A stretch of 64,000 nucleotides of DNA from Psammoneis japonica. Its lineage: Eukaryota. The position numbers and the translations under genes are program-made. The notes below the pieces were generated by a model. That model was not told where the DNA came from. It searched no databases and saw nothing but the letters and a program-made list of their open reading frames with translations. How positions within the stretch are numbered: position 1 is the first letter of the stretch; each line of letters begins with the position of its first letter. The stretch spans positions 1 to 64,000 of the forward strand of contig QPGO01000179.1 in NCBI GenBank assembly GCA_008632985.1, in the 5' to 3' direction. Positions 27,811 to 55,268 of this stretch are shown here, piece by piece.

Positions 27811-27829
27811 TCCTCGCATTGTTTTCATC

Positions 27830-31419: not shown

Positions 31420-32590
31420 CAATGGCAAGGAGGACAAAAGCAGCAAAGAAGGATGCTGCAGGGGCAGGGCCCAATGGCCCAAGGCTGACAGCGGTGTTGC
31501 AGGGGTTGGTGGCAGCGCTGATCACCAATCTCTGAAGAGAGAGGCGGAAGAGGTGGCATGGAGAGAGCTGTTCCCAAAGGCAAAATTCCTCATGAAGACG
31601 ACATGGCGAGTGGTGGCAAGGTGTCCCGGCTGGTGCAAAAAAACACAGCAGATGGCAAGTTCAGCAAACGCGAATGGGTGGGATCATGGGAGGACTGGGT
31701 GAAGAAAAGCATGCTCAATGCAATCAACGCAAAAAGAAACACCATGTGTCAGATGACAATGAAGAGTGCAATGAGTGGCAAGTGCAGCGGACTGGGGCAA
31801 AGCAGAAACAGGTGTGGTGCCACTGACAACTTTCTCATTTCACTGCAATCATCATGACAGAAAAACAAGCCGGGGAAATCTGCAGAAAAAGGAAGAAAGA
31901 GAAGCAAGGAAGAAGGCAGCCTGAAAAAAGCAGAAACAGAACAAAGCTGACATTGAAGAAACACTCCATGCAACTTGGGAGGATGGGACAGTTGACACCA
32001 CTGCACTTGAGAAGCAAAAGAACAGGGAGGTGTGCGCATGGTTCTACGACAACATCCTAAAATTCACGAAGAGCACTGCTGTGTGGAGAAGGATGGCAGA
32101 GTCTGGCAGCACACCAAGGCCACAGATCTGGCTGCGGCAAGTGACAGGCACTGGCCCTGTTGATGATGGAAAACTGCTGGAAGGTTTGGGAGCACAAGAA
32201 AGTGCAGAAGGGAAACAACAAGGGGAGCGAAAAGGACAAACTGGAGCCCTTGTACACAGACCCATTGCAACAGCGTGACTCTTGGAACGATGGAGGATCA
32301 GTGCACTTCAACGACCTGCTGAAGGAGGAAGAAGAAGACAGGGCAAGTGAGGATGGTGTGCATTTTGACATGTGGTGCACAGATGGAAAGAAAGAGGAGA
32401 GCAAAGGCAAAGGAAAAAAGGGAAGAAACACATTAAAAAACCAGCGGAATCGCAGACGAGAACGCAAGCGATGACACAGAGCTTTCTGGTGACGACGAGG
32501 AGGACGATGACAAAACGGATGAACCAGGTGGCAAAAGACATGAGGAGGAAGACAAAGCTGGCCAAGAAGGCAGCAACGGAAGTGTAAAAA
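31420..32590 (+). pseudogene. paralog of the transposon accessory ORF at 18406-19620
   Basis: ASGGKVS...WVGSWEDWVKK...INAKRNT; WFYDNIL; ENCWKVW; YT...SWNDGG..HFNDL. Confidence 0.65.
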
Positions 32591-34343
32591 GTTGGACTGC
32601 AGCACAAGCAAATTGGAAATGCAAAACAACCAGGGCTGCAGCATTGGCTTGGCATCGGTTGACGATCAACATCAAAAAGCCAAAGCAATGCATCGCTGTT
32701 GACTGAGAAGAGTGGACTGAGTTCATTGCATGTGTCAACACAAATGGCAAAACTGGTGCATGATGCAAAACAAACCAATGACATTGATTGTCAGCTGCTG
32801 TGGTTGACGAAGGCATGTGCAAAAAGGGAAAAGGGGGGGCTTTGGAGAGTTGAAGTTGTTTTCTCACAGACAAAAAAAATTCTCCACAGCCAAACAAATT
32901 GTCTGTGATGGATTAAATTTTATTGCCAGCTGCACAACCAACAAGGTTTGAAACTGTAAAAAGTTTGTCCACAAAAGGGACAAAAATCACTGTGAGAAGA
33001 CATGAGAGGATCGCTGCATTGCGGCATCTGATGTGGTCTGTCCCATTGCAAGCATTGAGTGACCCTGCTTGAGCCAGACCACTCATGTGGAAAGATTGCC
33101 AACCTGCTGCTCACAGAGATCACTGACACCACACCGAGAAGACAACAAAAACCCAGCAACATGCCGATCACGGCGCCAGAACAGATTCGGATCTCACGCG
33201 CACAGCCCTCGAAAACTGCGCGCAACAACCACCCCTCATTCGCATGACTGCATTAAATGCACGTTGTGCACTTAATAATTTATTTATCATGTGTGGCTGA
33301 AAGTGAGTACGAAATTTTAATGTTGATTGGATTGCACATGTTTGTGATATAAATCGACGCACTATCGTCAAAATTGGGTTGATATTTTGTACCATTGCAA
33401 AGATTTATGATTCAATTTTTCACACTATCACCAAAAGAGGTGAGAGATTTTGTAAGATTCAATTTTCGTTACTGTGGAAAATCGTTTTATGTTTTTATGC
33501 AGTCCCAGGGACACACGGCATTTTGTCGCATTTAGGTTTTGTCATAAAAAGACGCAATTGAGACAAACTGAAATTGTTCGCGATAAACAGGACAAGAATA
33601 TTGTAAAATTTAGCGAAAAATGTTTTATGTCATTATTTATGCACAACATTTGCTTTGGCGATGTCTTTTCGTTAAGTGTTGCATTTAACAAAATTTGGCG
33701 ATCTTTGTCATCGCCAAAACTTTCTACGACAAAATTTGTCGTGTGCGACACGACAAGACAAGACACGACACGTCACGACACGATTCACGAAAACAAACAC
33801 CCACGCACGGCGCGCGACTGAGCCTGTGGTCTCGGCGGACACCTTGTTTCTTGTGCACGATGATGATGCATCGACACATCGACGCGATGCGGCCCCTTCT
33901 GGCAGAATGAGGAGGAATGAGTTTTTCCATTAAATTCTCCATGTTGACATTGGTCGCAAACTGCTGCAAAGTGACCTTGGCCTTTGCTGTGGGTGCCTTG
34001 CAGCGCGCATTTGTGACCACACAAAAAAAGCACGACAATGCGATCTGCTGCGTTCTGCACATAAGATGCAACAAAGGGAGGAAACAACGTGACCATTCAA
34101 TCCACCATGTTTTCATTGGCCATGTGAGGTTCTACTTTTGCCTTGGACATCACTCCAGTCGCCTTGTGATTCGAATTTGTGATGACACGACACAAGAAGA
34201 GTGCTTTTCTGACAACCGATCCATTGCACAAGTGTTCTGCACATGTGAGCTGCCACATTTCACCTCATCTTTTGTGCTGTGGATGACATTCAATCAACAG
34301 TGTCGACTGTGTTGACTTGTGTCATGACCAGCCAACAATTGTT

Positions 34344-34741
34344 GACGGGTTCCAGCCCCAGGTGGGACTTTTTGTGACACTGGGCCCGCAGAATTCTACG
34401 TGCGAGCTCCGCAGCAAAATTGTTGAGCAATGCACAAATGAATGATTGCCAACAGAAAAAGAGGCAATTTTGCAAATGTGTTTCCTCCTCCACACTTGAA
34501 GCGCATTCTTTGCAGCATGCCCGGGTGTGTTCTTCAGACGTCAAAGAACACACCCAGCGCATTTTTGTTGTCACAAATGCAGACAACAGAAAGCCTTTGG
34601 CTTCGTAAAACAGGCAGTGTGGAACAATTCTTTACAATGAAACACGCAGAAATGTGCGTGTGAAACATGTGACGGATGACAAAAAACAATTGTGTCACAG
34701 TTCAGCAGTGCGAGGTCCCACCCAGAGAGCTGGAGCGCATC
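34344..34741 (+). mobile_element. ~400-bp MITE (family X, variant interior)
   Basis: Ends GACGGGTTCCAGCCCCAGGTGGGAC / GTCCCACCCAGAGAGCTGGAGCGCATC. Absent from the matching site of Z copy 2. Confidence 0.75.
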
Positions 34742-34916
34742 AATTGCTGTCGTAAAATGGATTTGAACACGCCATTGTGTGTCTTGCCCCTTTTGTTTGT
34801 TGTGGTCTGTGGTCATCTGGATGGAGCCTGTGTTGTTGTGTGTGGCTCTGAAGGGCCCTGCTGTGCAAGTGCGCAGGGCCCCACATGGTTTGGCACAACA
34901 CATTTGTCCTGCGTTT

Positions 34917-35305
34917 GACGGGTTCCAGTCCCAGGTGGGACTTTTTGTGACATTGGGCCCGCAGAATTCTACGTGCGAGCTTTGCAGTGCAAGAATTTAA
35001 TTGATGGATGTTTTTGTCTCCAACATCAAACACATGACCAAGTTTGTGGTGCAATTGTGCCCGTTGTCACTTGACTTTTTTGCAAGTGCGCCTGCCCTGC
35101 GTGATTCTTGAGACATTTGAGAATCGTGCTGCAAAAGAAATGTCAAAAGTTGTTGGACAGATTGCTCAACAAGCGCACCACAAAATGATGCAAAATCATC
35201 CCAAAATCACGCAGAAATGCGTGCGCGTGACATGTGGTGCAATCCAAAAAACTGTCGATGTCACAGTTCAGCAGTGCAAGGTCCCACCCAGAGCTGGAAC
35301 TTGTC
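34917..35305 (+). mobile_element. 389-bp MITE (family X), 4-bp TSD GTTT
   Basis: Imperfect ~25-bp TIRs with GTTT on both sides. The empty site is visible in Z copy 2 (~61980-62010). Confidence 0.85.
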
Positions 35306-38219
35306 GTTTGTCTGCTTTTGTCTGATTTTGTCTGCTTTTGTCGGCATTTGTTGCATGGTGTCGGCGTTTGTTGCATGGTGTCAGCATTTGTTGCAAGGTG
35401 TTGGCATTTGTTGGACGCATGACAAACTTGTTGTGCGCATGACAAAATTTGTTGTGCACAACAAATGTGTCGGACGCATGACAGGATTGCCAAAAAACAT
35501 TTGACGCACTTGTCTTCGCCAACAGCAAATTTGATCATTCATCCCTTGAGTGGCAGCATGTTTGTGAAGGAGACATGGCATCACCAATTAAATGTTGATT
35601 TTGTCTTGTTCATTGCCAATGATTGAAACCTGTCTCAAAGTGCGTTTTTCATGACAAATCGTCCAACTCATTTGTGGGAATGTTGCAATTGGCAACAAAA
35701 TGCTGTGTGTCCCAGGTGATGCTCTTCACACTGCAGTGCCATGATCACAATGTCACAAAACATCTTCACAACTGTGCCGCTGTTTGTTTCCGCCAGGTTG
35801 CAACCTCATCTGCAACAAACATCCATTTTCTCCTGCCATGTTGTTGTCACACTCCAGCTGTCGCCACACGTCTCGTCTGCCACCCATTTTGACAGGACTT
35901 GATTGCCAAAACAACAAAAATTCACGGCAACGTGTGCATTTCCAACCTGGTCAGCGTGTCAGCAAGAGGACCTTGACACACAAGAAGGTTGCTTCCATTG
36001 GACTGTCCCGCTGACATCAATCATTTGTTCTGCACTCTCGACACGGATGGATTTCTTGACACACTTCCAACTGGACAAGCTTTGGTCATCTGGCCAACAG
36101 CGCTGCATTGCCATTCAACAGTGAGCAAAAACAAACATCTGTCATCTGCACTGAGGGAGGTTGCAGAGGAATTGTCACTGCAGACAGCCAGACCAAAAGA
36201 GGCTGATGCTGGGAGAAAATCTCTTGCCAGGAAAAGGAAGTGCGTGCAAGATGACAACTCATTGGAAAAGAGCGCACCTGCTGATGTGGTTTGTGGTCAT
36301 TCTGTTGGTTCCTGTGTGGAGGGACTTTCAAATCAATGAAGGACATGTCAGCAGACTTTCGACTGCACTCAGACCGCTTTGGACAGTCAAAGTCCATCCA
36401 TCCATTGTTGTTTGGTCCTTCTTCAAGACAAGATTTGCAAACCTCCAATGACAGCAAAATTGGAAATTCTGCAAAAAACACACAAGATGACACAAGTGTT
36501 TGTCAAGTGCCAGTTTCTTCCACAAACACCGTTGTCCAACAACTGCCAGAAGGAACATTTGGAGACGACTGTTGCAATGAGCCCCTTTTTGCTGATCAAG
36601 CGGTGTTGGACAACCATTGCTTCGGATGTTGCAATGCCTCATCAGACTTTCTTGAGATCTGCGCTGCCGAGAACGTTGTTGTCAACAATGACACATTGGT
36701 TGTTGGCCTTGTTGTTGGCAACAAGATGACTGACACATCCACCCAGGAATGCAGAGATGCCGCAGTTTGCAAGGCACTGGTCAAAAACAGATTCAACGTC
36801 CACACTGTTGACTGCCATCACACAGACACTCTAAATCCCAATTGCGTGATCGTCGGTGCATGGGCTCTCAACCAATGCAACAATTGGGCTGCCACGGAAT
36901 GTGCCCATGACTCAATGTCGATGGACATTGTGTCCATGACCAAATGGCATTTCAACGACAGTGTCTTGACAGATTCTTTTTTCAGTCATTCGTCAACTTG
37001 CTTCTGTCAAAAGCTGTTGGATGTTGGCAATGTGTTTTTGCCAGTCAACCCAATGACAGCCCATTGCCTTTGTGAAAGCTGGGCTGTGGTTGGCAAAGTG
37101 TGGATTTTCAGGCACTTGTGCCATGATCAGTTGGAGAAAATGCCTCTTTTCCATCCATCTGCAGTTGCACACCTGCGCTGTCACGGAAAGGAGGGAGGCA
37201 TGCATCCTCATTGTGAAAAGATCATGGAGTGACATTGTCGGAGGTGTGTGTGTTGTTTGGCTTTTTTGCACTGGCTCATCCTTTTGGTTGGCAATCACTG
37301 CTGGGATTTTGTTGTTTTCTAGATCAAGGACTTTGTCTCCAACAAAAATCATGAACCAGTTAGAACATTCCCACTGGCCATTGAGAAAATCAACTGCGTT
37401 GGCTCTTGCTCCACAAAGAAGCAACTGCATTGCTGCCACTTGTGAGGTTGCAAATTCATTGCAGGCAGGCAAAGGTGTTGATGGCAAGGTTTGTGCAAGA
37501 CACTCCTTTGAACATCTAGAAAGCTGTGCAATCTGTCCGATGTGCTGTCAGATGCCACTGCAAAAAGGCTTGGACTGCCAAGTCTCTTGTGGACAGTGAT
37601 CACAAGCCAGACAAAGCTTTGGTGCAACAGATGCAAATTGCGGTCGCTTGGGCAGAAGGAGCAAGTGCAAGACTGGGGAAATCAGCATCGCGGACATTCT
37701 CAAGCAAAAAAATTGCAGCTGTTGGGCAAAACAGCACCAACCGCTGGACACCCCGAATGGGCAAGACAACAAGCACTGGAGAGCCACCTCATTCTTCCCA
37801 ATGGACAAGAAGAAGTCACAAGCACAGTTGTTCCCAGATTTTGATCTCACCAGTTTTGCAAAAGATCAAAAATTCATGGAAAAGACAGCCGTTGTTTGTT
37901 GAGAAAAAACGTGGATGCCAGATTCAAGTGCATTTCTGTTTGCACTTGAGCTGGCATGCATCAACAGGATTGGAGTCTGCAAATCAACTTGCATCAGATC
38001 TTGGCGGTGACATTTGTGTGTTGCCAAACTCGCGCAATCATCCTCATTTGTCATCATGCCCAATGGATCTGATCATCATTGATGGGCACAATGTCGCTGG
38101 TGTTGGTGCTCCTGCTGATGGCAAACCTGTTTTTCAAATGCTTCAATTGCCGCCGGATGTTGCCAAAAAGAACCTTTTGTGTCTAACTGCCAGAGTTGTT
38201 GAGGATGGGTTGTGCAGTG

Positions 38220-38770
38220 GACTTGGAGATGAGTTTGTCACCCTTTCAAAAGCAGACAAATGCAGAAAGTTTTGCTCCATGGACAGTGGGGTCAATGCAG
38301 CTGGTGGGAAATGGGGCAGAAGCTGTGGTGTGGGAGTGGCAATGCCGGGATGCCCACCCAGAGCAACTGACCAAGCATCTCCAAGGTTGTGTCAGTGGAT
38401 GCTCCAGCTCTCTGCAATGGCAGTGCATGGCACATGCTGTGGGATGCTTGATGGAACGCAACGATTGCAACAGGGTGCAACAAGTGCCATGAGATGAAGG
38501 GTTGCCTCAAAATGTCAAAGATGGCCAAGGTGCCCCGACAATCTGTGGGACGTTCCACGCACACACCTCCCCAATTGGAGCAGCAACTTGGCATTCAGAT
38601 GCAAGCAATGGGAAGGACATTGATCACGATCACATTGCAATGGCCTCACACTTTGTTGAGGACTGGCCCATGTTCCCATCCAAAAAAATGTCAACAAGCT
38701 CATGGAGAATTGTGCGCCAGCAACAAACAGATGCTTCGCTTGCTTGTTGCACACTGGGTTGATTGTTGAC
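38220..38770 (+). pseudogene. degenerate paralog of the TET/JBP-like domain at 53890-54600
   Basis: Colinear motifs DEFVTL~GEFVHI, GVGVA..P..T...M..LS~GGGYA..P..T...M..MS, WHSDASN~CHVDDLN, SLACCT~SLIGYS. By-eye alignment across frames. Confidence 0.45.
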
Positions 38771-39109
38771 AGCCAGTTAAAGAAGCTGGATTTAAGTGTG
38801 AATTGTCCTCATGTGGAGTCCCTGGTTGCAGCACCAAAGGAACACTTGGGTGCCATTTGCCTTTGCACACTCATCACCCAGGAAGAAATTGCCAAGGTGA
38901 CGGAAAGGATTCTGTCTGCCGGCACATCCGATCACTGCAGCGAAGGGAGGTGCGTCAAGATGAAGAAGGGTGAGACTCAAATGACAATGCTTGGGTGCAT
39001 TGCGTGGCTGTGGATTCTGTTTTGTGGTTGCTGCAATGAAGCTGTTTGCCTCCAACACACTGCAGAGCACAAAAGGGATTGGTTTGCAGGAAACGCAACA
39101 GAACACCTT

Positions 39110-40126
39110 TGAAAGCTTGGAATGGGCAGCAGCCAGGAAGGGCTGTGTAAATTCCAGGACTGAATTGAATTGAGCTGTTGTCTTGCATTCATTCCAGCAC
39201 ATTAACACCCGGGTTGCTTTGGTGTGTTGAGTCTTGCTGCACTCAAGTTGAGTCAATCAAAACGCTCTGCCCACACCAGGTGAAAAATTGCCCTGCATGG
39301 CAGCTCATCAAACAGTGTGGGCAAAGCTGCATGATGACGACATTCAAGCAAATGGTCACTCTCCAAACAAATCTCCCTTGTGCAGCTTGTGACTTTGTGA
39401 GCTGTGCAAGGGAAGTTCACAAGCAACACAACGTGACCTTTCACAGCTCACCCTTGTGCAGCTTGCACTTGTGACTTTCCAAGCTGCATGAGGAAAGTTC
39501 ACAAGCTGGGCGATGCAACTTTTTGTTGCTCACCCTTGTGCAGCTTGCAACTCTGTGAGCTGCGTGAAGGAAGTTTGCAAGCTGCATGATGCTGCTTTTC
39601 ATTGCTCACCCTCACGCAGCTCACAACTTTGTGAGCTGCACAAAGCATTGTTTCATGTGCCACATGGCAACATTCTTTCAACTGCTTGACATGAGTCATT
39701 TTTCACAATGGCGAATTTGCACGCACAACTCCCAGACATTGCTTGCTCAAAACAACACAATGAAGCAGACCACATGACAGCAGCAACAGCAGATGCTGGG
39801 TTGTGCCACCAAACCTTTTCCCACAAAAACACCAACACATTGCATTCCACATTTTGCTCTGGCAAGCATGTCCATGAAAAGATGCATGTGTGCTTGACCC
39901 TGTTCATGGTTGTGGATTGAATGGCATGCCATGCATTGTTGAAAGCTTGAAATGGGCAGCAATTGGGAAGGGCTGTGTAAACTCCAGGATTGAATAGAAT
40001 TGAGTTGTTGTCATGCATCAGTTCCAACACTTTAACATCCGGGTTGCTTTGGTGTGTTGACTCTTGCTGCGCTTGAGTCAAGTCAATCAAAATGCTTTGC
40101 CCACACCAGGTGAAAAATTGCTGCAT
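39110..40126. repeat. ~190-bp direct repeat (39110-39298 and 39940-40126) enclosing ~4 short CCCTTGTGCAGCTTG-type repeats
   Basis: TGAAAGCTTG.AATGGGCAGC...CCCACACCAGGTGAAAAATTGC occurs twice. Confidence 0.85.
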
Positions 40127-41887
40127 GCACTCTTTTTCCATTCTTGCACACAACACACGCAAGTGAAACCCGGAGCATCAGGGATTGTCTGCCATGGCAG
40201 TTGAGGTGGTGGCACTGTGATGTGGCACATCAGAGGGAAACTCTGCAACCACAGAAATGGTCTCACTCTTGCTGCAGTTGCAGTTGTGACAGGCCCAGAA
40301 GCACCTTGTTGGTTGCACTTGCGTTGTCACACCAAGACTGCTGTGAGCAGCTGAGCCTGTCCAGCTGCTGGATTTGCTTGCTTTGTCAGAGCCAAGCTGT
40401 TGCTCACGTGTTCAGTTTGACAAAAAAACAACAAACAACTGTGAAGAGACAATCGCGCCATGATGGCAGGGTCATGACGACAAATGCCAGTTGATTGAAG
40501 GGTGCGCAATGATTGTTGTCACCTGGCATCAGCGAACATGCAAGCAGTGAGGAGACATGGCAAATCTCCATGCCTCCAATGGCCATGTGTTGTCATCAGC
40601 ACAAAATTGAGACATCATCTCATCATGTGATCTCTCACACAACTCTGTTTTTCCACTGGCCCAGGCACCACCATGGCGGCTGCTCCTCTGGATCCAATCA
40701 AGACAGCTCTTGAATGGATCAGATTTGTTGATCCAGCTCAATGAGTCTTGCTTGTGGCAGATTTTGCATCTTTCAATGATTTGGAAGACCTTGAAGAACA
40801 AGGTGTTGACTCTTTTGCATCATCATGTGCTGGAAGCACAGTTGCTGAAGGGTGCATTCTCACTTGGTTTGGCCTGCAGTCACCAACTCAAGGCTCTCAT
40901 CCATTGGGCTCAGGACTTTGGTCACATGAGTGAAGATCCTGCCCTTGATGGGCTTGATCAGGCAACTCTTTGTGCTGCACTGTAGACGGCACTCAGTCGT
41001 GCTGAGAGCTGCCACCAGACTGAGGCCACTGCTGAATCTTCTGGCAAAAAGGCATCACCTGGGATGTTGGAGAGCAAGAAGGATTGGGTTGAACGGTGCG
41101 CTGGTTTGACAACCTTGCTTGGCATCATGCTGGGAGTCTCTGGCATGCCGTTGGTGCATTGCACTCGTCCCAATGATGAGCCTGAACCTGAAGGTCACAA
41201 CACTTTTGTCCAGAATTGCACTGCACGTGCACCTCTTGAAGGTTCTGTTTTTGAAGCAGACACTCGTGCAGCTCACTTGTTGATTGAATCCCTTGCTGTG
41301 GGGGCACCAAGCAAACAGTGGTTGAAAAACCACAAGGATGAGCAGAACGGATGAGTGGACTTCAGAGCATGGTGCAACCACTGCCAGGTAGAAGGAAACA
41401 CATTCCATTGCATCTCTAAAGCCAAGCACACTCTCCACTGCAGGAGCAAGCGCACTGTGCCTTTTGAGTCATTCATTGACAAACTTCAAGAAATGTTTGG
41501 TGTCTTTGAAGAGAATGATGAGCCAAAGACAGAGGCCCAGAAATTGTGCAAGCTGCAGTTGAACCCTTGAAGGCACACAACAAGTTTGGAGGAGGAATCA
41601 CATTTGCTGTGGTGGCTGACCATCTTGCTGCAAAGGTTGCCACTCTTCCAGAGATGATTGCACACTGTCATGCCATGGCCACAGTTGCCTCTGGAGGAGG
41701 AAGAGAGGGTGGCACCATCTGCAACAACAAAGGATTCATTGGCGCTGGATGCCACAAGGATTGGCGCCAGTTGAGCAAGGAGGACAAACAGTCTGGGTGT
41801 TGCCAAACAACCCAGAAACCCCAAACGCCACACTGCATCTGTCAAGTTGCTCATGAAGAAGAATCAGAAGCTGTTGTTGCAGCTTGA

Positions 41888-42392
41888 GGCTGGATTGTTG
41901 TTTTCCCCCCCTTTTTTTTAAATGGCTTGCAATTTTTGAATTTTTCCACACTTTGCCTGCGTTGCTCAGCGATGCCTCTGAGCACCCCCAAACACACATG
42001 AGTGTGTCCAACCCCCATCAGGGCTGTCAGACCTCTGTGTGAACTGTGCACACTGACCTTCAAATGTCAATTGTCACATTTGTCACATGGAAAAACCGCC
42101 ATTTTCTGAAAAGGTTGGGCTGTTTGTGTTGCAGACAAGCCACAGCTTTCCAGGAAATGCCAACAATTGGCTTTTGACTGGCCATGGACACATTTGCAGT
42201 CATTGAGCTGCACATCGTGCATGGTTGCAACCATCACATGTGAGCCCCATGATGTCCCACAAACAGACAAACTTCAGCCTGTTGATGAATTGTTTTTTGG
42301 CAAATGTGCACATTGTCAAAGTGACAAATCTGGTTTGTTTTTAAACAACCACAAGCTCTAAACAAAATCAACCACAAAATGACAATCCATCC
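41888..42392. mobile_element. 505-bp TIR element at a former TTAA site (GG...CC ends, Kolobok-like)
   Basis: GGCTGGATTGTTGTTTT / AAAATGACAATCCATCC flanked by TTGA and TCAA. Confidence 0.7.
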
Positions 42393-42396
42393 TCAA

Positions 42397-42893
42397 CCCT
42401 TCAACCACCGGACGTGAGCAAATCTCAGCGGGTGGAGATTTGCTTGTTTGTGTCATAAATGTGACAAATGTGGCATTTCCAGATGTGAACAACAAATGAT
42501 CCGCGTGAATTTGTTTTGGAGCACGCATTTGCTGAAAGCTCTGGGGGGGACCATTTTTGCAACCAAGAAGTTCAATGTTGACTTTTGACACAGGGTTTTT
42601 TGCATGCTTCATCCATGTGCAGAGAGGAGCCATTCTCAACCTTTGACAATGAAATTTGCAATGTGTCGCCATCACAATGGAGTGGCAAATGCCACACTCT
42701 TGGAGCAAATCTCTGCCGGTGGAGATTTGCTTGCAATGAGCAAATGCCTGTGGTGCGTTTTACGCAGATTGCACATGATGTGACATTTTCATGACATGTG
42801 CACTGCATTGTCATTCAAATGCATGACACATCACAATTCCTTGAGCAGAGCAAATCTCCACCCATGGAGATTTGCTCTGTGGTGGTTGAAGGG
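42397..42893. mobile_element. 497-bp piggyBac-like MITE (CCC...GGG ends, former TTAA TSD) with three GAGCAAATCTC..GAGATTTGCT hairpins
   Basis: CCCTTCAACCACC / GGTGGTTGAAGGG flanked by TCAA and TTGA. Confidence 0.8.
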
Positions 42894-45800
42894 TTGAAGA
42901 AGTGAGCTGCAAAATCTCTGCCTTGAACGCCAGCATCAACACTGACTCTGGTGCAATGGCAGTTTGGGGCATGACGCTCAAGATGGGCACAATGTTGGGG
43001 ATGCATTTGGTGGTCACAGTGGAAGGTGCAAGGGAAAGTGGAGTTGACTGCCAAGCTGGATCCTGCTCAGCAGCATCTTGGACCTCATTCTGTGGTTGCC
43101 ACATTGGGCGGGAGACAGCCATGTCAATCAGAGAAACAAAATCCATGCGGTTGTTGCCTTGACATGATGCATCTCAGCAGTGCCATCTGACACACAAGTC
43201 ACCCACACATGAAATGGATTTGCATGCTGACGCCACAGTTTTTGGTCAAAACTTTACCCTCTCAGGTTGTTCTGGACAAGAATGCAATGTGTCGCCTTTC
43301 AATGAGGGGTGCAATTCCATCAAGAGTGTCCTGACAGTTTTAGCGGCCACAGTGTGGATGTCACCAACATTGGGAGCAATGCTCACTCTGGTCCTCAACC
43401 AGGGCTTGTTGATGCCTGATTCCATGGAGAACTTGTTGGTTGACCCAAACCAGCTGCGGCACTTTGGCATCAAGGTTCAGGAAAATCCCTGCTCTGACTT
43501 GCCACTGCACATCATCCTTGCAGAGGACAAGTCATTCATGATGCCACTTGAAGCCACGGGGACCAACATTGTTGCGTTGCGGCAACCCACACTCCCACAG
43601 AGCAGGGCACTGGCACGAATGACTTAAGATCCAGATGACCTCCCAACAACCTTGGAATCCACAGACCATGAAGCTCAAGTGTGTCAATGTGGAAGCAGAG
43701 TCGGAAATCCAGATCTCCACATTGGAAGCCCAGATCTCTGCCATGGAGGCAATCAGTGAAGGACAAGAAAGACTCAGTGCTCCAAAAGACTTTCATGCCT
43801 GAGGAGAGGCATGGCAATTTGTTGGCCGCTGACCACTGACTCAAGCAAACAACGGTGCATCAGGCTCAAGCAAATGGCAAACACGCTCAAGAAGACCACA
43901 CAAAGACTCGTCAGATCAGCACCAACGCTGGAGGTGGCTGATTGGGGATGTCTCAACATGGAAGTTGCACGTCCATCAAGAGATGACAATGGCCCTGAGT
44001 TTGCTTTTGTGTCACAAAGAGGTTGAGAGATGCCAATGACAATCCCATCCTTGACACAAGGGTGCGCGAGGCAGAGCACGCTGACGGGCATTGCACTGTG
44101 CTCTCAGCTGACTCCATTGCTGTGAGAGTGTTTGCACAGATTGTCAAGGTTGGGAGTCGGCACCTCCCATTTGATGAGATGGCAGATTGCTGTGCAAATG
44201 GGGACATTCCAGAATCTGTGTTCTTCAAGACTGAGCTGGGCATTGGGAAGATGCGCAAGTCCGCCAAAAGGATGGGAGCTTGTGCTCCAATGGAAGGATA
44301 GAAGCACAACATGGGTCAACTTGAAGGACGCCAAAGACAGTTTTCCTGTGCAAGTTGCCAAGTTTGCCATTCAATGCAGGATCTTAAAGAAGGTGGCATT
44401 TGCTTGGTGGGTCCTCATGTTGTGAGAACTTGCAAGCATTCCATTGCAAAGGTCAAGTCAAAGTGCTGGCTTCCAACACATGAGTTTGGCACTTGGATTC
44501 TGAAGAGCATCAAGGAGGCAATTCAGATCAATTGTGCAAATGGCAACACCCTCTGGCAGGATGCCCGCTTGCATGGAGATGAAGAATGTGTGGGTTGCTT
44601 TTGAAAAGTGTGAAGGGGAGCTTGATGACATGGTGCCTGGGTTCCTGGAAGTGAAGTGCTGTGTGACTGCTGCACACACACCCCCCCCCCCTGCACACAT
44701 CACCTGCTCTTCTGTTGTCTCTCCACATTTGGCCAGAAATTCGCTCATGCTTGCAGCGCTCAATGACTTGCAAGTTTTTGCACGCTGCATCCAGAAAGCA
44801 TGCCTTGCTGCCCGTTGCAGGGAGAAGATTTGGACTCATGCAGGATCTGAACTTGGTGAGGATGAAGGCTGCATCATGATTGTGGTCAGGGCTCTGTGTG
44901 GATTTGAGAGTTCTGGAGCAGTGTTCAGAGCATTTCAAGTGGAGACGCTTTGTGAGCTGGGGCACAAACCAAGCAAGGCCGATCCGGATGCATGGATGAG
45001 ACCTGTGGTGAAAATGGATGGATTCAAGCACTGCAAGTGCACCCCAGTTTATGTTGATGGCATGCTGTTGATTGGTCATGAACCCACAAAGATGATGAAT
45101 GGCATCAGGTCCAACTTCAAGCTCAAGGGTGACAAGGCAGCTGAGTCAGATTTTCATCTTGATGCCGCACTTTGCAAGATGATTTTTTGCCAGTGGGGCT
45201 GCATGTTGGGCCATGTCTGCAGAGAACTGCTGCAAGGCCGCTGTTCAGAATGTCAAGGATGGACTTGGCAAGGAAGGGAAAGGTCTGCCTGGCAAGGCAA
45301 CAACACCGCTGAGCAGCGGGCACAAACCCAAGTTGGACATGACTGGCAAATGAGATGCCAAAGGACTGATCCACTGCCAAGAGTTGACTGGCATGTTGGT
45401 TTGGGCTGCAGAACTTGGCAGAGCTGACATGCATTTGGAAGCTTCATTGATGTCTGCTCACCTTGCACTGCCTTGCATTGGCCACCTGGAACAGGTGCTG
45501 TGCATCTTTGTGCATCTCAAACAGGTTCCAAAGCACCAAATTGCATTTGACCTGGCTCATCCTGAGACAGATGAGTTGCAATTTGTGAAGTGCGACATTG
45601 ACGCAACTTTCACTGGCAGCCATCCCAACCAATGTGCTGCCTGCTCAAGGCAACACAGTGTTGACACATTGTTTTGTGGATGACAGCCATGCTGGCAATG
45701 TTGCTGATCATTGCAGCCATGCAGGCATCTTGACATTTGTCAATCAGGCACCTTTCATGTGCTGGCACTTGAAGCGTCAGAATGCTGTGGAGGCCAGCAC

Positions 45801-47209
45801 ATTTGGAGCTGAGATTGTCATGCTCAAGAATGCTGTTGAGATCACAGAGGGTTTGTGATGCAAGCTTCAAATGTTTGGTGCACCAATCAAAGGGCCAACC
45901 AATGTCTTTTGTGACAACAAGGCCATCTGCAAGAACTGCTCCATTGCTGAGTCTACACTCAAGAAGACACATCATTCCATGGCCATTGGGATTGTGAAGG
46001 AAGGAACAGAGACAAACCTGAGCAATCAGTTCACAAAGATTGTGTCATCCATCAGACGGAATTTTCTGTTGGACAAGTCCATGCATTGAGTTTGGTGTGT
46101 GGAGCAGTGGTGATTTTCTTCCCCAGCAAGGGTTTGCACCATGCTCAAAGATTGTGGTTGGTGATTTTGTCCCCAGCGAGGGTTTGCACATGCTCAGAGA
46201 TTGCAGTTGTTGTTTGGGAGATGCTGGGTCAGCACCAGGATGAATTGTCCCTGCCAAGTCTGCCAGGAACACTTCAAGGGGACCAAGTGAGCTCTGGAGC
46301 ATCAGGGATTGTCTCCTGTGCTTTGGTGCTCTTGTTGCAATTGTGGTTGCAACAGGCCTGGAAGCATCTTGTTGGTCACATTTGCGTTGTGGCACCAAGA
46401 CTGTGAGTGGCTGAGCCCATCTGGCAGCTGGATTCACTTGTGCAATGCCATGCAGTGGGCATGCAGTCTTGCAGCCAGCTGGTCTACAACCACCCTTGAC
46501 GAGAATGTTCAACCAAAACACTTTGACAATGTTTTCCCACTCACACAAATGTCAATCCAAACACATGTGCTTTTCCATCATTGGATGTTTTTTGACTTGT
46601 TTCTGTTGCTTTGGCAATGGTCATTGCCACAGAACACTCTACACAGAATCTGAGAGTTTGTGGCAGTCAGCAGCTCCAGGAGAGATGGAGAGAGAGAGCA
46701 AAAGAGAAGAGCAAAGGAGAGAGGAACAGCTTTGGCCTGTGACAAAAAGCCCCCCCCCCCCCCCCCCCCCACCTGCAACATTGACGTTGTGGAAAACATT
46801 GCTTGTGCATTTGAGCCTCCTTTGAATTTGTTGAGACAGCCTGTCAGAGCCAATGGGGGCTGGCATCCTGGCCAGGCAAAAGTTGGCAACTGCAACAAAA
46901 GGTGGTGCCCAAAGCTGCAAACCCAAATCTGAGTTGCTGCAAGGTCTCACACCTGCTCTTGAAAGGCAGAACAGCTGTGCTTGAGTGTTTTGCTTTTTCC
47001 AATGATTGCAAGCACCAGCCCTTTTGACTGCAGGATGATGCTGTGGTTGTCTTGTTTGAAATGCAGGTTGGCGCAATTGTGCGGTGCAAACACAGGCCAG
47101 CTGCGCTCACTTTTGCATTCAGAGAGACCCTGCAGCACCAAGACAACAGCTTTTTTCCCCCCTGCAGCTGTGTGACAGAAGTCATTGCACAACTTTGGGT
47201 GGGGATCCC

Positions 47210-47387
47210 AGCTGCTGTTGTGCAGTTTGACATGGCAAGAGGCACAGTTGCACCACAAACTTGGTCGTTCATTTTTGATGTTGAAGCCAAATGTGTCTGT
47301 TGATTAAATTCTTGTGCTGTGGAGTGCACACATGGAATTCTGTGGGCCCAATGTCGCACGGAGTCCCACCTGGGACTGGAGCCCATC
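47210..47387 (-). mobile_element. truncated MITE (family X)
   Basis: GTCCCACCTGGGACTGGAGCCCATC end plus the adjacent interior shared with other copies. Confidence 0.7.
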
Positions 47388-48699
47388 CAGCAGTGCACAT
47401 GAGAGCATTCGAGTTCCACACTTGCTGTTGGATGTCTTGTCATTTGTGCCACTGCTTTGGACCAATGGCACAGCATGTGCTGGTGATTTGGAGATTTCAG
47501 GTTGCACGCCACTCTCCACCATGCTCAGATTCAGCATTCTTTGTTTTGAAGAAGGCCTGGCAAAAGAAAACTGGGAAGAAGCCACACAGCCACAGAAGGG
47601 GCTGCACACACAAAGCTGATTGATTCTCGGACGATGTTGCACTCTCGTCAAGGAATCATGTGTGTCAACTGAAATGGCCAGTGCTTTGCACAGGGCCAAG
47701 ACTGCATGCCATGTGCTGTGTGCCATGCCCACTCCATCAAGAGTGTCATCAGCGATTCTCCCTTGTGGTGCATCCACTTTCCAAATTGATCACTCAGACT
47801 CACAAAGTGTGTGTCGTCAACTTCCATGTGCGTCTTGTCTCAACCCCCAACATCGCCCCATTGTTGTGGCTGCTGAACCAAATTTTGTTGTGCCTCAAGC
47901 ACCCACGAAACATTGCAAAACACACATTGAAATTTTGCTCAAGAAACTTGATGAGTGGCTCAATGTGGCAGCCAGGAGGTCGGGTGAGACGGTGCTGAGA
48001 CAGAGCTGGAAATGAGCATGAAATCAAGTCAAGCTGGCTGTCGTGTGCCAGAGCATTGAATGCATCAAGCATGAAGCTCATTGGTCTTCCACTCAACTCA
48101 CAACATGTGTCTGCACTGTTGCCCGGCTCATCAAAGCACCCGATGATCTCGGTCAGGTTCAGACCTTTTCCGCACCTTGTTCAAACTCATCTTTGCACAC
48201 CGGATCACGGCCATGAAAGCATTGAACGTAAACAAATTAGGAAGAACAGGGTCCAACAAACACTCGTTGGTGTTGAGGCATTCATTGTGAGCTGAGACTA
48301 ACAGCGTGAAGCGTGAGCGACCGATCTTTTTTTTTCGTTGCTCGCTCGTGTTAATTGTCTCGCGCGCAGTCAGCATCCTGTGAGTTCGCTTGGCGGTTTT
48401 TTGGGTGCGAAAGACAGAAGAAAGTTTTTTTTGCTTCCAGCCACGTGGCTTGTCTCTCGTCCACAAGTGATTTTGAAATTCGTGAATTTGCTTCCAAGAA
48501 AATGACGATGAGCATGTTCAATAACATAACGTTCTACCGCTACCGGTACAAAGCAGCAGCGCGCAGTACGACAAGAGAGGGTAACATCCGTTTCCAGATT
48601 CGAGAAGTGACTTTACTGCACCTAAGGCTTTTGTCGCCCGTGAATGACAGAGTCCAGCACAAGGCTTCACGTGTTGCGTGTTGCCGATTCGCGATTCGA

Positions 48700-49275
48700 C
48701 GAATGGGATAGACCATGGCTCTTTTGATGCACAAACTCGATGTTTTGGAGAATCGCTCTCCGTGAACGATACTGTACAGCTTTGTGCCGATCCTTGAAGG
48801 TCGCGGTGGTCATTGTACCCAGTTATGGCGCTAAGCACAACTCCTTGAATGAGCTCTTTAGAGGAGCGCGTGTCTCCTATATTTTCACGGAGGCGTTTTC
48901 GTCTTCCTTGAATTCTGTCGGCGCCTTCGATGGACTGAGCGACGAGGAGATTCGCACCACGATTTGCAATGCCAACGGAATGAGACCTGCTCTCTTTGTC
49001 CCTGACATTAGTTTCGACATTCTAGTCAAGCGCCAAACTGGTTGTATCTAATCTCTTGGAACGATGCGTGGGACCAACTCAAATGATGGTTTCTAATCTT
49101 GTCAAGAGTGAACTTGCTGTGAGTGTGCCACACGGTGTGCGATTCCTGTCGTTGCATAGAACGCGTGTCGCGATTTTTTAATATGTTTTGCCTTGTGGGT
49201 TTCTAGTATATTAGCACCAGTCACCATGATTTCATTGGAGGATCCCGGGCTGTCGCACGTCTTATTGAAAAAGAT
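48700..49275 (+). pseudogene. dynamin-related protein middle-domain fragment with deletion and intron
   Basis: EL.RGARVSYIF...FDGLSDEEIRTTICNANGMRPALFVP.ISFDILVKRQ; MVSNLV..ELA / YISTSH.DFIGG. Confidence 0.85.
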
Positions 49276-49293
49276 TGGATGTTTGTGTCTTAA

Positions 49294-49485
49294 GTGCCGG
49301 TTTTGCCGTTTGATGGCTCCATTATCCTACTAGTTCCATTTCAGGAAGCCGTCCATGGAGAGGAAGCGCGTTCCAAGTTTCCCGGTGTTTATAGGAGAGT
49401 TATTCTTTGCGTCATTGCCTTTGAAGCCTTCTTCGGCATGGTGTGCTGGCCGGGTTTTGGAGATTCCGTTCGAGCTGTCCTGACA
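49294..49485 (+). pseudogene. amino-acid transporter (Aa_trans/SLC36-like) fragment
   Basis: FDGSIILLVPFQEAV...KFP.VY...FG.VCW.GFGD.V resembles FEG..L..P.......F..V...G...Y..FG. Confidence 0.6.
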
Positions 49486-50994
49486 GACAAGAGCCCCGAG
49501 CCATCAAGGCTTGGTTTTAGGGGTATTTCCATTTGGGACAAGATTATCAAGATTCCATTACATTACCCACCATTGACCAATCCGAGGGGCGGCCCTATCC
49601 AAACGGAGGAAGTTGCGTCTTTGCACAAACGTCCGTTTGCGAGCAGACATGTCGAGAGATGGGCGACAACAATCGCGGTTGTTACGAGGGAACAAGAGGG
49701 TTTTTTAGATTTATGCCGTGGACCGTAAACTGGGAGGCAAAGTGCGACGCGACCGTCACCCACAAGGATTCGGGACACGAGGTTGGTATTTATGCCCATG
49801 ACGACGAGGCGTACGATCATGATATCTATTTCAAAGTGCACCAGTGCACGGAAAGATAAATCCTACTCTTTCAATCCTACTCTTGCGATGCATAGACAGA
49901 TGTGGAGTGCTCCATTACAGACGTTAAACCCGTTGGAACCGAGAATTTTGTGACGATTTAAGTTATGCGAGAGTCCTGGGTATCATGAATGAGATGCTCC
50001 TCGAGTATGATAGCTTCGTCGTGGCACCGTTGGCAGTTGTCTTATACCCAAAAGAACTTTTAGGAAGAACCATTGCTTTATGGTTGTCTCTGATATTGTC
50101 GAGTGTATCAGTACGGACGACGAAGATGCAATGGAGGGTGTCGAATGTCGAGATAGATGGGAACAAGCCGGAATTGTCTTTGGTCCAGAAACAGAAAAAA
50201 TCACCGTTGTTCAACTAAATGAAGATATGGGTCGCATTGGAGAAAGATTGTCGGCAACAAGTTTGCAAGGATGAAAGAAAAGCGGATGGAGCAAGTTGAA
50301 AGTGGCTGATCTATCTGAAGCCGCCGCGACCACCCCCCCCCCCCCATGTTGTGTTTATTACTGATTCCCCCGAGTGATCCTAATACGTAAGAAAGCTAAA
50401 GCCAAAAGGACGGGCTAACTCGTTTGGTCGAGCATTTCCCACATATCAATATGCCAGTCCTCAAAAGTCAAGAGTTCTGGATAAATTCGTGCGTTTCTAA
50501 CACATACGGATGTTTTCTTCAATGCGCTTTGGAGACCAATAACAGAACTTTGACTGTTTCAAAAACTTTAAATCGAGATCGACAATCCCTGACTTGATGT
50601 GATCTAAACAGCGATTGGATCATGTGAAGATGAAAGAGTTTATGATTCCAAGGGGGAATTAAAAGCCGCTTACTTTAGCCGAGCACAAGCAAGGCGTGAA
50701 ATATGTCAAGGTCGCTTGCCGCACGGCAGTCCAACAGACAAGGACGCTTCGCATTCGAACGACGCACTTGGCAAAAGGAATCATAAACATCAACAAAGCA
50801 AAGACTCAGCAACACTCTTCACGCCGGTACCACTCCGTAAGCTAAATACATTAGGCATTGCATATCGTTGGTTATGAGATGCGGCGTACAACATGGTTTA
50901 CCTCCCGTCTTGTACTCTTCGTGGCGTTTACCACCCGGTGCACAAGTTTGAACATTTCTACCTGGACTTGCTGGAACTTCATGCTGCACCGGAC

Positions 50995-51450
50995 CTATTC
51001 GGCGCCATCGCCATTGGAGTTCTCACTCTGTCCGTGGCTCGAGCCGGCGGCAGCAGCAGCCGTCTTAAGACACTTTACAAGAGAATCCCGAGTGCCGTCG
51101 GGACTGAGTTCCGCTTCCTCAAGCTTTCTACGCATCCCAGCTACACTCATTTTTTTCGAAATCGCCCTCGTCTTGGTCAAAAGCCACGGGCTCAAATGCA
51201 GCCGCCACCAGCTCTTGGATGGATGAATCTAGCGACAGAAAAGCTTCTAATTTTCTCACTGCCTCGTCGCTGTGGGCAACAAAAAAGGCCAGCGCGGATT
51301 CCTTGAGAAGGGCGCAGTTCTTGCGTTCGGCGAATAGGATCAAGTCGATAACGCTCTCCACGGTGATGGCCGATTCCACCATCTTGGCTTCCACACGAAG
51401 CTTGAGACTAACACTGTCACACTTGTCAGCAAATTCAAGAAGCGCCATTT
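50995..51450 (-). pseudogene. BTB/POZ-BACK protein C-terminal fragment with SAP-like tail; +1 slip in an A7 run
   Basis: ADK...LKL.VEA...ITVE..IDL.LFA..KNCALLKE; MSV..MRRKL....L..DGTR..LV..L. No BTB N-terminus upstream. Confidence 0.7.
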
Positions 51451-51888
51451 AGCCTTTATCGTTCATGGTAGCAGAGCTGGGAGAGAGACGTTAGAAGCTG
51501 TGTGGCAAAACGCAATACATCAATGTCGACGTTCTGCATCAGCCGACGCTGCCTACGACATTGCTTGGGAGAAAGTACTTGAATGGAATGAAGCTGGGAA
51601 CGACTTGCGGATCGTCCATTTGGCAGTGTGGAGTTGCCATCAGGTGCTCCGAGCCACAGACGTGCAAGAGCAAACGTCGACAGAGAGGAGCAACGTCGTC
51701 GACAACGCCAACGAACGGATGACCAATAATCTCAATCGTGATGTCGACACCTTCACAAATGGGCAATTTTGCCAAATTATAAGACGGCTGTACGACGATT
51801 ATGGTGGAAACGGAACACTTGTCAGCGACACAATAACATTGAACGACTTAATCGTTAACAAGCACTTCCTCACAGTTACACACTTTAA

Positions 51889-54800
51889 CTATAACTTTTG
51901 TAAACAGTAGTCTTGCCACATTCTTTTCAAATCCCTTTTGTCAGTAGGGATGGACAAAATCCGGCATCCTCCTCGAAAGAACAGCACACCGAGCAACGTA
52001 TTCACTGCTCTTGAGTTTTTGCCATGACCAGTGGTAGTGCATGTGTACAACACCACAAAATCTCTACCCAAAACATTCATTCTTGAAGCTGGTAGAAGGT
52101 CAACAGCCCATTTTGGGTCCGTCTTGATCCCCGACGGAGTCTTAGTTTCCGGCGTGTGATACAAGATAGCTTTCAGAAGAACAGCGGCTTCGGCTTGTGC
52201 ACGTGTCCGGTAGAACGCGACATCTCTTTCATGTGCCACCAGTCCTTCCAATGGCAAGACGCAATCGTTGTAGTTCCTCCGCAAAAGCACTTGTTTCGCT
52301 GAATTAACGGTGGCAGTAAAAATTGGATCCCGACCAAATTGTTCATTGGTTGTGCAATGGACCAATTGACGTTTCCCTCTTTTCCTTTTCCGAGAAGCCA
52401 CTGCACCAAGACTCGTCATAGCCAGTTTCGCCAGTTCTATCATTCTATATGTGCCGTCTGATCGGTTAGCTCCAAACATGCTTTCCAAGTCAGGACGTGT
52501 CGAGTTCCGAGTGACGCTTCTTCTGCTAAGAGTCAGCGTTAACTTAAGATCTTTGTTGACACTGGTGTAGCAAGGTTGATCATCCTCTTCACATTTGCTG
52601 ACATCGAAGTCAAGCTCAGAATCTTTGTCCACCTTTGCCCGAAGAGATGCTTCCCAAGCGTAATTTCTTCCTATGCCAGAGTGACTGTTCTTGTTGAACT
52701 TGGCCCTCTTCTTCTTTCGAGTCTCGTTCTTCTTGCGGTCTTCTGGGAGCACAGACGTTTCGGAAGTTTTCACTTCTACCGGCTTCAAGGATGCAAACTT
52801 CCCAAGCACCCAAGGACAATCCATTTCAATTCTATTGTTGATCTTGTATTGGGGAAGTTTCATTGGCTCACGCACCAGATCATGCTCCTCTCCTTCATCC
52901 GAATGGTACTTCTTGAACGATTCTATCCTAACTCCGTTTTCAATTTCAAAGATAGATTGATCGTGGTGAACAGTGTCTGGCCTGTAGCAATGGCCATTCT
53001 TTTGAATCCGTTGAGACATGCCACTCTTGACAAGCTCAGACGTCACACAGTCCGCATTTTCACCCAAAGTTCTGAGTTTTTCACAAGGAACATTCTCGGC
53101 CACAGCTGCACTTGTGCCAGTGAGTTGGGCAAACTTCTTATAACACTCATTCACCACAGGAGTTCTAATGCCAAACGTCTCGTTGATGACCTTGTATGTG
53201 CGTGTGGAAGGACACACTCGAGCTTGCTCCACCAATGTCGCATCCTCGTACATGGCCACTATGCTGCCGACTGCAACCAAAGTCTGTGCTCCAATGTCCG
53301 CCACACCAACGACATTTTGAATTGGAACGCCATTCTTCTTGTCGCAGTGAGTGAGAAGCTTGAGCACTCCGTCGTAATCTAACTCTCCAGCATCAGACTT
53401 GCGAATGGATTGAAGAAGATTAAACAGTGAACGATAAATCCCCACATTTGTAGTGGAGCAGGTGAATGCCGGCTGCAAGCGACTGCCGTCGCCACGCAAC
53501 AGCCCACCATAACGACGCACGCATTCATCAATGAACGCCTCTGTGAGATTACACTTGGGAAGACCGTTCTTCGCCCACCCTTTGTACACTTCGTACATCT
53601 GATTAGGGGTGGTCAACCATCCCACTGGTAGAAGCAATTCGCAAGCTCGCTCCTTAGAGACTGGAAAAGACCGCAGCACGCACAGTGTGGCAGAGGCGAA
53701 GGCTGCGTGCCACACTATTTTGTTCATGTTGGGGAAAGGATAGTGGACCCCAATAGAACGTGATGGCAGCAAGAAACGTGCATCGATTTGGCGATACTCT
53801 TCCGGCAAGGAGTGGAAGAAGTCCAACATCTGGCGAAGCAACTCGTCACTGCCAGCTAGACGGATGAAGTACTCGGAGCAGCAACGACGACTGTATCCGA
53901 TTAGACTTATTCGATGCCATTTGCCTAACAGGTAATAAATCAATAATGACGTTAGAGCGTATACATTGCACGAATCAAAAATGAAAGACACGCTATAGTA
54001 ATAACTCACCATCAATGCACACATGAAAGTAGATACACATCAGAGCGTTGTAGTTCTTTTTCCTACAATTCAAGTCGTCTACATGGCAACCAAGCAATAC
54101 AGCCAGTTTTGTAATAGGATCTAACTCATCCGCCGAGGTCATAGCCAATGTAAAGTGCTCAAACAGTTGTGCTTGTTTGCCGTTCTTGTTGATCCGGTTC
54201 AAACCAAATTTGTCGCAAAGTTTGGAGGCAAAGTAATCGTTCCGCCGTTTGTCTGCAGTAAACGGCACTTCGTCCCATCCAGGAGTAGCTTTTACCCAAT
54301 CATAAAGTATGTCAGACATGCAACACATTGTTTCCACGTGCTGTTTCCTAAGCCCTTTAGTGACCTGAGGTTCTGTTACTCCGTCTTCATTCAACCGTGT
54401 GTTTTGTGAAGCATATCCACCGCCTGTAGTGACATTGCCCCTTAGGCGGTCACCAGTATCTTCCGAATGAGACTTCAATATGTCATCAACCAATCCCTTG
54501 ACATCCAACTTGGACAAATGGGGTGCAAAACAATCACGCCAAAAATCACTTTCATGGTCAATGTGCACGAACTCGCCAGGGTCAATGTACGTCCCTTTTA
54601 TTCTATTGATAGGAACACCTTGTTCTTTCGCCAGTTTGTTAAGCTTCCCACGATCAGAACGGGGATTTTGGCAATGCGGTTTACTGTGTCCGTCCCATAA
54701 CATATAAGCTCCAGCTTCCGACACCTCTAATCTGTTGACAGATTCCGTCTTCCACTTTTTGGAAAGTAATCCATATCTTTTCACGTTCTCAGGTTTGAAC

Positions 54801-54904
54801 TTGAACGGTGCTTTCGGTTTCTCAAATACCAAATCTGGTTGTTGTTCAACTGGCCATCGAGGCCTCGGAGCGTCGCCGTACCATGGAATGCCAGGTATAC
54901 CCAT
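51889..54904 (-). CDS. 976-aa protein, putative TET/JBP-like 2OG-Fe(II) dioxygenase domain plus HhH/aGPT-Pplase-like helical domain; exons 54904-54010 and 53924-51889
   Basis: An 85-nt GT-AG intron joins two long ORFs in frame (2931 nt). Motifs CHVDDLN, RISLIGYSR, VVGVADIGAQ, AENVPCEKLR. The gene model is firm; the domain identity is inferred from motifs only. Confidence 0.6.
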
Positions 54905-54927
54905 TTCTTAAAATCTTTGAAGTTCTG

Positions 54928-55268
54928 CAGTTGTTTCCGACCAACTTCACAACGGATCTCACTCAAAGGCAAGAACTCAGCGTGACTGTAGCCGAAACCA
55001 CCGAAGTAGCAATAAAGCTAGCCCGATGCCCGAGCCAGTAGCTCTTGGGACGACTTTAGAACAAGATGTCAGATTTAGGATACCTCACAACCCAAAAGCA
55101 CGACAGCAGCTAAACCGGTGTCAATAAACAGGTGTGGCTTTACAGTTGTTTCCGACCAGTTTTCACAACGGATCTCACTCAAAGGCAAGAACTCAGCGTG
55201 ACTGTAGTCGCGAACCACCGAAGTAGCAATAAAGCTAGCCCGATGCCCGAGCCAGTAGCTCTTGGGAC
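54928..55268. repeat. near-identical ~125-bp direct duplication (54928-55051, 55143-55268) just upstream of the 976-aa gene
   Basis: CAGTTGTTTCCGACCA...GCCAGTAGCTCTTGGGAC occurs twice, with TA sites intact. Confidence 0.9.

Follow-up and report, generated by a model that had tools for sequence, protein, structure and literature searches.

Three diverged copies of one target site around two adjoining transposons record post-insertion mutation of DNA within a TpA-depleted repeat domain of Psammoneis japonica

In mutation-accumulation lines of Bigelowiella natans, 231 of the 302 nuclear point mutations fell within two integrated viral regions, and 230 of these 231 were A-to-G or T-to-C changes, all 230 of them on TpA steps (10.64898/2026.01.13.699255). 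The same preprint reports that TpA-depleted coding sequences of this organism are enriched for reverse transcriptase (RT) and DDE domains, and proposes an ADAT2-like protein as the deaminase; its main text contains no analysis of neighbouring bases and mentions no rule for the 3' neighbour (10.64898/2026.01.13.699255). Besides this preprint, no report of TpA-specific repeat decay was found in the literature searched. The present analysis concerns a 64,000-nt stretch of the Psammoneis japonica genome (contig QPGO01000179.1, positions 1 to 64,000; hereafter the window), in which a degraded Ty1/copia-type long terminal repeat (LTR) retrotransposon, copia-2, is interrupted by two adjoining non-coding elements with terminal inverted repeats (TIRs), designated E1 and E2. 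These are separated and flanked by three tetranucleotides that now read TTGA, TCAA and TTGA. Since copies of a duplicated target are identical at the start and these three now differ, they must have changed in chromosomal DNA after insertion. An initial annotation had read them as three TTAA copies, each mutated after insertion, and is partly supported: the observation is confirmed, and the level and timing of the mechanism were right, while the TTAA ancestor is unproven.

The inserted block starts with the first target-site copy (TTGA, 41884-41887, plus strand), which marks the left edge of the segment absent from a paralogous contig described below, and ends with the third copy (TTGA, 42894-42897, plus strand), which marks its right edge. 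Between them, sequence reading delimits the 505-bp E1 (41888-42392, no strand assigned; also recovered by inverted-repeat search), the second target-site copy, common to both elements (TCAA, 42393-42396, plus strand), and the 497-bp E2 (42397-42893, no strand assigned), whose ends have a piggyBac-like architecture. The TIRs of E1 are 17 nt long (41888-41904 and 42376-42392) with 14 matching positions and three mismatches, of which two make up a single TG-versus-CA pair, whereas those of E2 are 13 nt long (42397-42409 and 42881-42893) and perfect, beginning with CCC and finishing with GGG. E2 additionally carries palindromic subterminal repeats of 29-31 nt (42416-42446 and 42848-42878), separated from the left TIR by 6 nt and from the right one by 2-3 nt, and a third, internal copy (42703-42733); in the right repeat the direct-repeat arm covers 42848-42878 and the inverted-repeat arm 42849-42877. 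Neither element contains a tRNA or an Rfam family, the only Rfam hit being a sub-threshold miRNA hairpin (25.7 bits versus 95).

An uninterrupted copy of copia-2, which the initial annotation had proposed to look for, was found in a public sequencing run (X1) that contains 62% of the sampled words of the stretch, and from which 567 contigs were placed on the window at 80% likeness. One of them (record 2, 327 nt) aligns with 41680-41873 (24 other letters, 23 gaps) and again from 42911, with 27 letters in between; in the window without the block, 10 + 4 + 13 = 27 letters occupy the same interval. The site reads ...GCAGC TCAA AGAAG..., so that this diverged paralogue carries exactly one tetranucleotide between the same flanks, which confirms the block as two TIR elements inserted at one 4-nt host target. 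A second contig, joining 41814 to 42897 with 36 letters between them, resembles a further paralogue without the insertions, from which another 36 nt are missing; its shorter side comprises only 24 letters, and it was not counted. When the block is exchanged for a single tetranucleotide, the upstream frame 0 runs into the open downstream frame, as the initial annotation had stated. This restoration was borne out but taken as weak evidence, because one in three joins would succeed and the upstream frame already contains three TGA stops.

The tetranucleotides might instead be part of the elements' own inverted termini, or the whole arrangement might consist of chance inverted repeats. The pairs TTGA/TCAA and TCAA/TTGA are indeed reverse complements, extending each TIR by 4 nt, and under independent decay such a symmetric pattern has a chance of only 2 in 8. 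Were they termini, however, E1 and E2 would have to share the middle tetranucleotide; in run X1 the ends of E2 coincide with the boundaries of a repeat family, and the single tetranucleotide retained at the empty site of record 2 rules this version out. As to chance, a search of the window for inverted ends of 12 nt next to TTAA, TTGA, TCAA or TCGA yielded 13 pairs with at most two mismatches, two of them perfect, and one abutting pair, namely E1/E2. Forty composition-preserving shuffles gave on average 0 perfect and 0.025 abutting pairs per window, and reverse-only and complement-only decoys gave none of either. Taken as a whole, this explanation is very improbable. The two perfect pairs were E2 and one inside a longer hairpin at 57123; the latter was considered as a candidate miniature inverted-repeat transposable element (MITE) at 57123-57321 between TCGA and TCAA, but dismissed because its inverted repeat continues through the tetranucleotides. 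The surrounding 57100-57345 forms a long hairpin-like inverted repeat with arms of about 26 nt, 194 nt apart, that differ by one C/T at a CpG, and belongs to a repeat family also present at 34916-35298 and 63200-63585.

Many contigs of run X1 (16-42 at single positions, with 42 at 42011) match the two ends of E2 and the E1 core (41966-42187), indicating that each element belongs to a repeat family; in six contigs the similarity to the right end of E2 runs to 42894 and is lost beyond it. Another contig (record 3) spans the junction between copia-2 and E1 (41776-41999) with 21 differences and four gaps, being roughly 90% identical, and the composite of the two was therefore copied at least once after the arrival of E1. 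Only 21 letters of a further contig (record 8) fall within E2, and it was not counted as bridging the right junction. Among the public runs listed for the stretch there was no RNA run. Within the window, blastn with word size 7 detected no further copies of either element, and when 2-3 mismatches were allowed, the TIR patterns matched 8 times versus 4.9 expected and 5 times versus 1.9, with no convincing addition. Scans with the E2-end pattern retrieved nothing and then two unrelated bacterial hairpins from metagenome contigs, and nothing from viral contigs.

Several independent features of the locus place the changes in DNA and on both strands. In the copia body downstream of the insertion site the sense strand contains 645 TG and 605 CA. 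The candidate LTRs of copia-2 (40160-40380 and 46284-46440, plus strand) align over 115 + 31 nt at 77-87%, the 5' copy being about 60 nt longer between the aligned parts, and 8 CA|TG double mismatches, four in each direction, occur among the 23 mismatched positions in the 115 nt. The two LTRs of a retrotransposon are identical at integration. Together with the TA-depleted DNA transposons, this symmetry indicates change in DNA on both strands, in agreement with the initial annotation, which had placed the mutations in chromosomal DNA after insertion. E1 and E2, each about 500 nt long, retain only three and two TpA, respectively, and have no RNA stage, which likewise speaks against editing of an RNA intermediate.

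The remaining route through RNA would be A-to-I (ADAR-like) editing of a retrotransposon transcript carrying both insertions, fixed by reverse transcription. Consistent with it, the second copy of the copia/E1 junction shows that the composite was copied after E1 had inserted, the hairpins of the MITEs would form double-stranded RNA, and ADARs prefer U before the edited A (10.64898/2026.01.13.699255). Editing of the sense RNA, however, yields A-to-G changes on the plus strand only, whereas the middle target copy carries T to C; the copia body is close to balanced (TG 645, CA 605), and all repeat blocks of the window are symmetric; isoleucine-to-threonine and leucine-to-serine replacements occur beside tyrosine-to-cysteine ones; and the CA|TG differences between the LTRs run both ways. 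The mutations of B. natans, moreover, arose in single-copy chromosomal DNA (10.64898/2026.01.13.699255). Sense-RNA editing is thus excluded as the main cause, which upholds the argument of the initial annotation against an edited RNA intermediate, and the explanation by edited RNA as a whole is barely credible.

The block lies in a domain (34001-48500, no strand assigned) defined by dinucleotide counts and sharp borders, with an observed/expected (o/e) ratio of 0.044 for TA and 0.31 for CG, and 1609 CA and 1710 TG. It is one of four depleted repeat blocks (7501-20000, 26501-33000, 34001-48500 and 55501-64000) that together make up about 42 kb, in which, whatever the kind of repeat, TA o/e is 0.036-0.056 and the excess of CpA approximates that of TpG. 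The gene regions between them, of which 3001-7500, 20001-26500 and 48501-55500 served as control DNA, are spared (TA o/e 0.56-0.65), and the borders are sharp to about 100-400 nt. CG o/e amounts to 0.31-0.48 in the repeat blocks and to about 1.0 in the gene regions; the signature of methyl-CpG deamination, CpG loss with gain of TpG and CpA, therefore coexists with the TpA process in the same blocks. Within this repeat-rich DNA, an island of normal TA content, about 470 nt long (33254-33725), extends into the first part of a repeat copy at 33506-34341. The other copy of that repeat, at 62171-63080, is depleted throughout; the hypermutated domains therefore have borders that do not coincide with those of repeats.

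The B. natans process described in the preprint shares with the window the loss of TpA exclusively to TpG and CpA, on both strands and in foreign DNA only, with adjacent genes spared. The targets differ: integrated viral DNA in B. natans, and in the window copia with nested MITEs and other repeats. So does the extent, with TA o/e about 0.05 over 42 kb, near saturation, versus 0.45 in the nucleocytoplasmic large DNA virus (NCLDV) region of B. natans. Unlike in the published account of B. natans, CpG is co-depleted and a 3'-neighbour rule is visible in the window.

That TpA, and not CpG alone, was the source of these changes is indicated by both protein and repeat alignments. At three columns where tyrosine is conserved in 60 relatives, the copy in the window has cysteine, phenylalanine and cysteine; elsewhere in the coding sequence of copia-2, conserved isoleucine is replaced by threonine twice and conserved leucine by serine twice, and tyrosine occurs 0 times in 242 and once in 307 residues of the window translations. 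A polarised comparison is offered by the repeat copy at 33506-34341, which is less mutated and partly TA-normal, and that at 62171-63080: here 10 of 11 aligned TpA have changed, five to TG and five to CA, including all three TTAA (changed to TG forms), along with 20 of 36 CpG and two of four TCGA. In the 42 kb of depleted blocks 131 TpA survive, 36 of them within TTAA. Relative to gene DNA, survival is 0.11-0.16 for CTAA/TTAG and 0-0.008 for ATAC, GTAC and GTAT, which together have two survivors versus 166 in control DNA. Decay thus depends, on each strand, on the base 3' of the A, with survival factors in the order A > G > T > C, and survival by context is roughly the product of the two per-strand factors (a 5'-T-A-Y-3' rule, with Y for pyrimidine). 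The products are biased as the rule predicts, YTGY and RCAR (R, purine) gaining most through YTAY to YTGY and RTAR to RCAR. CpG loss has a context of its own and favours a 5' pyrimidine: CCGA, TCGA and TCGG are hit hardest (0.18-0.23 of control) and GCGC least (0.85). Because CpG is depleted alongside TpA in the same blocks, CA|TG mismatches between repeats have two different ancestors.

The two ancestors also compete at the insertion site itself. In a survey of piggyBac-like elements, TIRs were 12-19 bp long and began with C[C/A/T][C/A/T], subterminal inverted repeats lay at unequal distances, and the target was TTAA in 152 of 157 elements and never TCGA (PMC5381638). E2 follows both the rule on TIR length and start and that on unequal subterminal repeats, sharing with piggyBac a 13-nt TIR beginning with CCC, subterminal repeats at unequal distances and a 4-nt duplication. 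It differs in that this duplication now reads TCAA/TTGA instead of TTAA, each flank being one transition away from TTAA and equally from TCGA. A Pfam scan of 116 + 37 open reading frames (ORFs) of the window returned no match to a piggyBac transposase. E1, which begins with GG, is not of piggyBac type and may have TA as its target and have inserted at the central TA. To our knowledge, the specific palindromic targets of TIR transposons (TA, TTAA, TWA) all contain TpA, and we know of no TIR superfamily with a TCGA target.

A number of observations nevertheless weigh against a TTAA ancestor, or against the wider reading built upon it. TTGA and TCAA are also single-step products of TCGA, so that the target might have been TCGA, with its copies decayed by deamination of methylated CpG, in which case the site would be uninformative on the TpA process. 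CpG is strongly depleted in the domain (o/e 0.31), and TCGA is its fastest-decaying context (41 versus 86 in control DNA, density 0.20 of control), with none left in copia-2; among TpA contexts, conversely, TTAA decays most slowly (density 0.40 of control), and two TTAA survive inside E1. Across 13 repeat-pair alignments (3752 columns) with 25 intact and 109 half-mutated CpG and 93 oppositely mutated CA|TG, CpG accounts, under an independence model, for about 59 of the 93 double mismatches, and in the T..A context TCGA pairs are 10 half-mutated and one intact, versus three half-mutated and five intact for TTAA. The empty site of the paralogue reads TCAA, not TTAA, these searches yielded neither an E1 nor an E2 flanked by an intact duplication, and E1, with its initial GG, falls outside the piggyBac end rule. 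The identity of the process with the B. natans system, finally, is suggested by the mutation signature alone.

These points are met by others. A TCGA target would require that both of two unrelated elements preferred TCGA, which is used by 0 of 157 surveyed piggyBac-like elements (PMC5381638). In the LTR pair the 8 CA|TG double mismatches are accompanied by one half-mutated and one intact CpG, too few for a mostly CpG origin, and in the polarised pair TTAA changed in three of three cases versus two of four for TCGA. The presence of two unrelated TIR families at the same tetranucleotide argues for sequence-specific targeting. Given this shared site, the piggyBac-like ends of E2 and the three of three TTAA converted in the polarised pair, TTAA stays favoured, and we regard it as very likely the ancestral target, with TCGA an unlikely alternative and any other origin somewhat less likely again. 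The derivation of the duplications from TTAA claimed in the initial annotation thus stands in so far as the copies were originally identical and now differ, but TTAA as such is not established, because TCGA also fits.

The history that we consider highly probable combines two insertions at TTAA with TpA hypermutation of DNA; its target, order of events and enzyme are those that we infer. A degraded plus-strand copia element would have received two unrelated non-autonomous cut-and-paste transposons at a single TTAA in its gag-protease linker. The first insertion would have duplicated the TTAA, and the second would have entered one of the copies, with TTAA as a whole or just its central TA as the target, to leave three copies. 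E1 may have used the central TA only, since a TA duplication around A + E1 + T would read identically. For E1, a duplication of 3 nt (TWA) was rejected, as the two flanks would require different ancestors. The repeat domain at 34.0-48.5 kb would then have undergone, or continued to undergo, hypermutation of its DNA, in which the A of TpA becomes G on either strand, with TpA to TpG or TpA to CpA as the outcome on the plus strand, and the three TTAA copies would have mutated independently to TTGA, TCAA and TTGA. The process would be that of Bigelowiella natans, most simply adenine deamination in DNA, limited to foreign or repeated DNA.

Two other groups of systems resemble this process in part. 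Fungal repeat-induced point mutation (RIP) likewise acts on DNA and degrades repeats by dinucleotide-specific transitions within sharply bordered domains, but it produces C-to-T changes and enriches TpA, whereas the A-to-G changes of the window remove TpA and raise GC. The RIP signature, C to T at CpA with TpA enrichment, is accordingly absent from the window, where the direction is opposite. ADAR and APOBEC enzymes also cause deamination-type transitions concentrated in mobile elements; they act, however, on RNA or reverse-transcription intermediates and are strand-biased, while in the window both strands are affected equally and DNA transposons are affected too.

The host element, copia-2 (40160-46440, plus strand), was delimited by tblastn with related proteins, phmmer and alignment of the candidate LTRs. 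On the same strand, tblastn located a gag (40881-41555), a protease-like domain (43118-43594, with phmmer relatives) and the C-terminal region of an integrase (43987-44565), and Pfam an RT (44504-45424) as a weak RVT_2 match (E 0.0022, 18.1 bits versus a cut-off of 31.6) in a heavily mutated sequence. The order gag, protease, integrase and RT with flanking candidate LTRs fits Ty1/copia. The gag and protease-like matches are 1653 nt apart; subtraction of 1010 nt leaves 214 aa, near the 222 and 245 aa of two related proteins, and this linker length was counted in favour of the history proposed above. The initial annotation had thus described the two back-to-back TIR elements exactly, but had placed them in gag, whereas the site lies in the gag-protease linker rather than in the gag core. 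The protease-like part has 938 phmmer relatives at E ≤ 0.001 (best 8.9e-28), which span query residues of about 70-240, a range outside which the linker with the insertion site lies, whose ancestral codon pair there would be Leu-Lys or Leu-Glu; these relatives show a D-S-H-A-D type motif followed by a conserved N-P-N-Q-L-R motif. Pfam detected no gag or protease family in the ORFs of the window and in 11 related proteins, only a weak rve match in one relative, and a homologue search with the 87-aa ORF directly downstream of the insertion site returned no candidate. Between the protease-like domain and the next match (43594-43987) there are about 130-150 aa, versus 470-540 aa in relatives, and copia-2 therefore appears to lack the integrase core, which was apparently deleted. 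Among host genes, the window contains ANAPC4, with two Pfam domains (5896-7792, minus strand), and an ordinary gene with a coatomer beta C-terminal region identified by Pfam (23190-23669, plus strand).

The triple duplication represents a natural experiment: the insertion mechanism made the copies identical, and because they differ today, the mutation must have followed insertion and struck DNA. A DNA-level process of this kind is already established in print, where mutation-accumulation lines demonstrate it more directly (10.64898/2026.01.13.699255). The window mainly confirms the process described in B. natans and extends it to transposable elements at saturation, an extension foreshadowed in the preprint. 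Three aspects may add something new, namely the 3'-neighbour rule, a constraint that helps to find the enzyme, the decay of CpG in the same blocks, which must be separated from that of TpA in analyses based on CA/TG, and the independence of domain borders from repeat borders. The natural RNA target of TadA contains U-A-C. The T-A-Y rule, the saturation of chromatin-like domains and the coincident CpG decay could, as a tentative and rather doubtful interpretation, point to a RIP-like genome defence in which methylated, silenced chromatin recruits a DNA adenine deaminase of TadA/ADAT type. If this were true, TTAA, the target of piggyBac-type elements, would be the TpA context that best escapes the defence.

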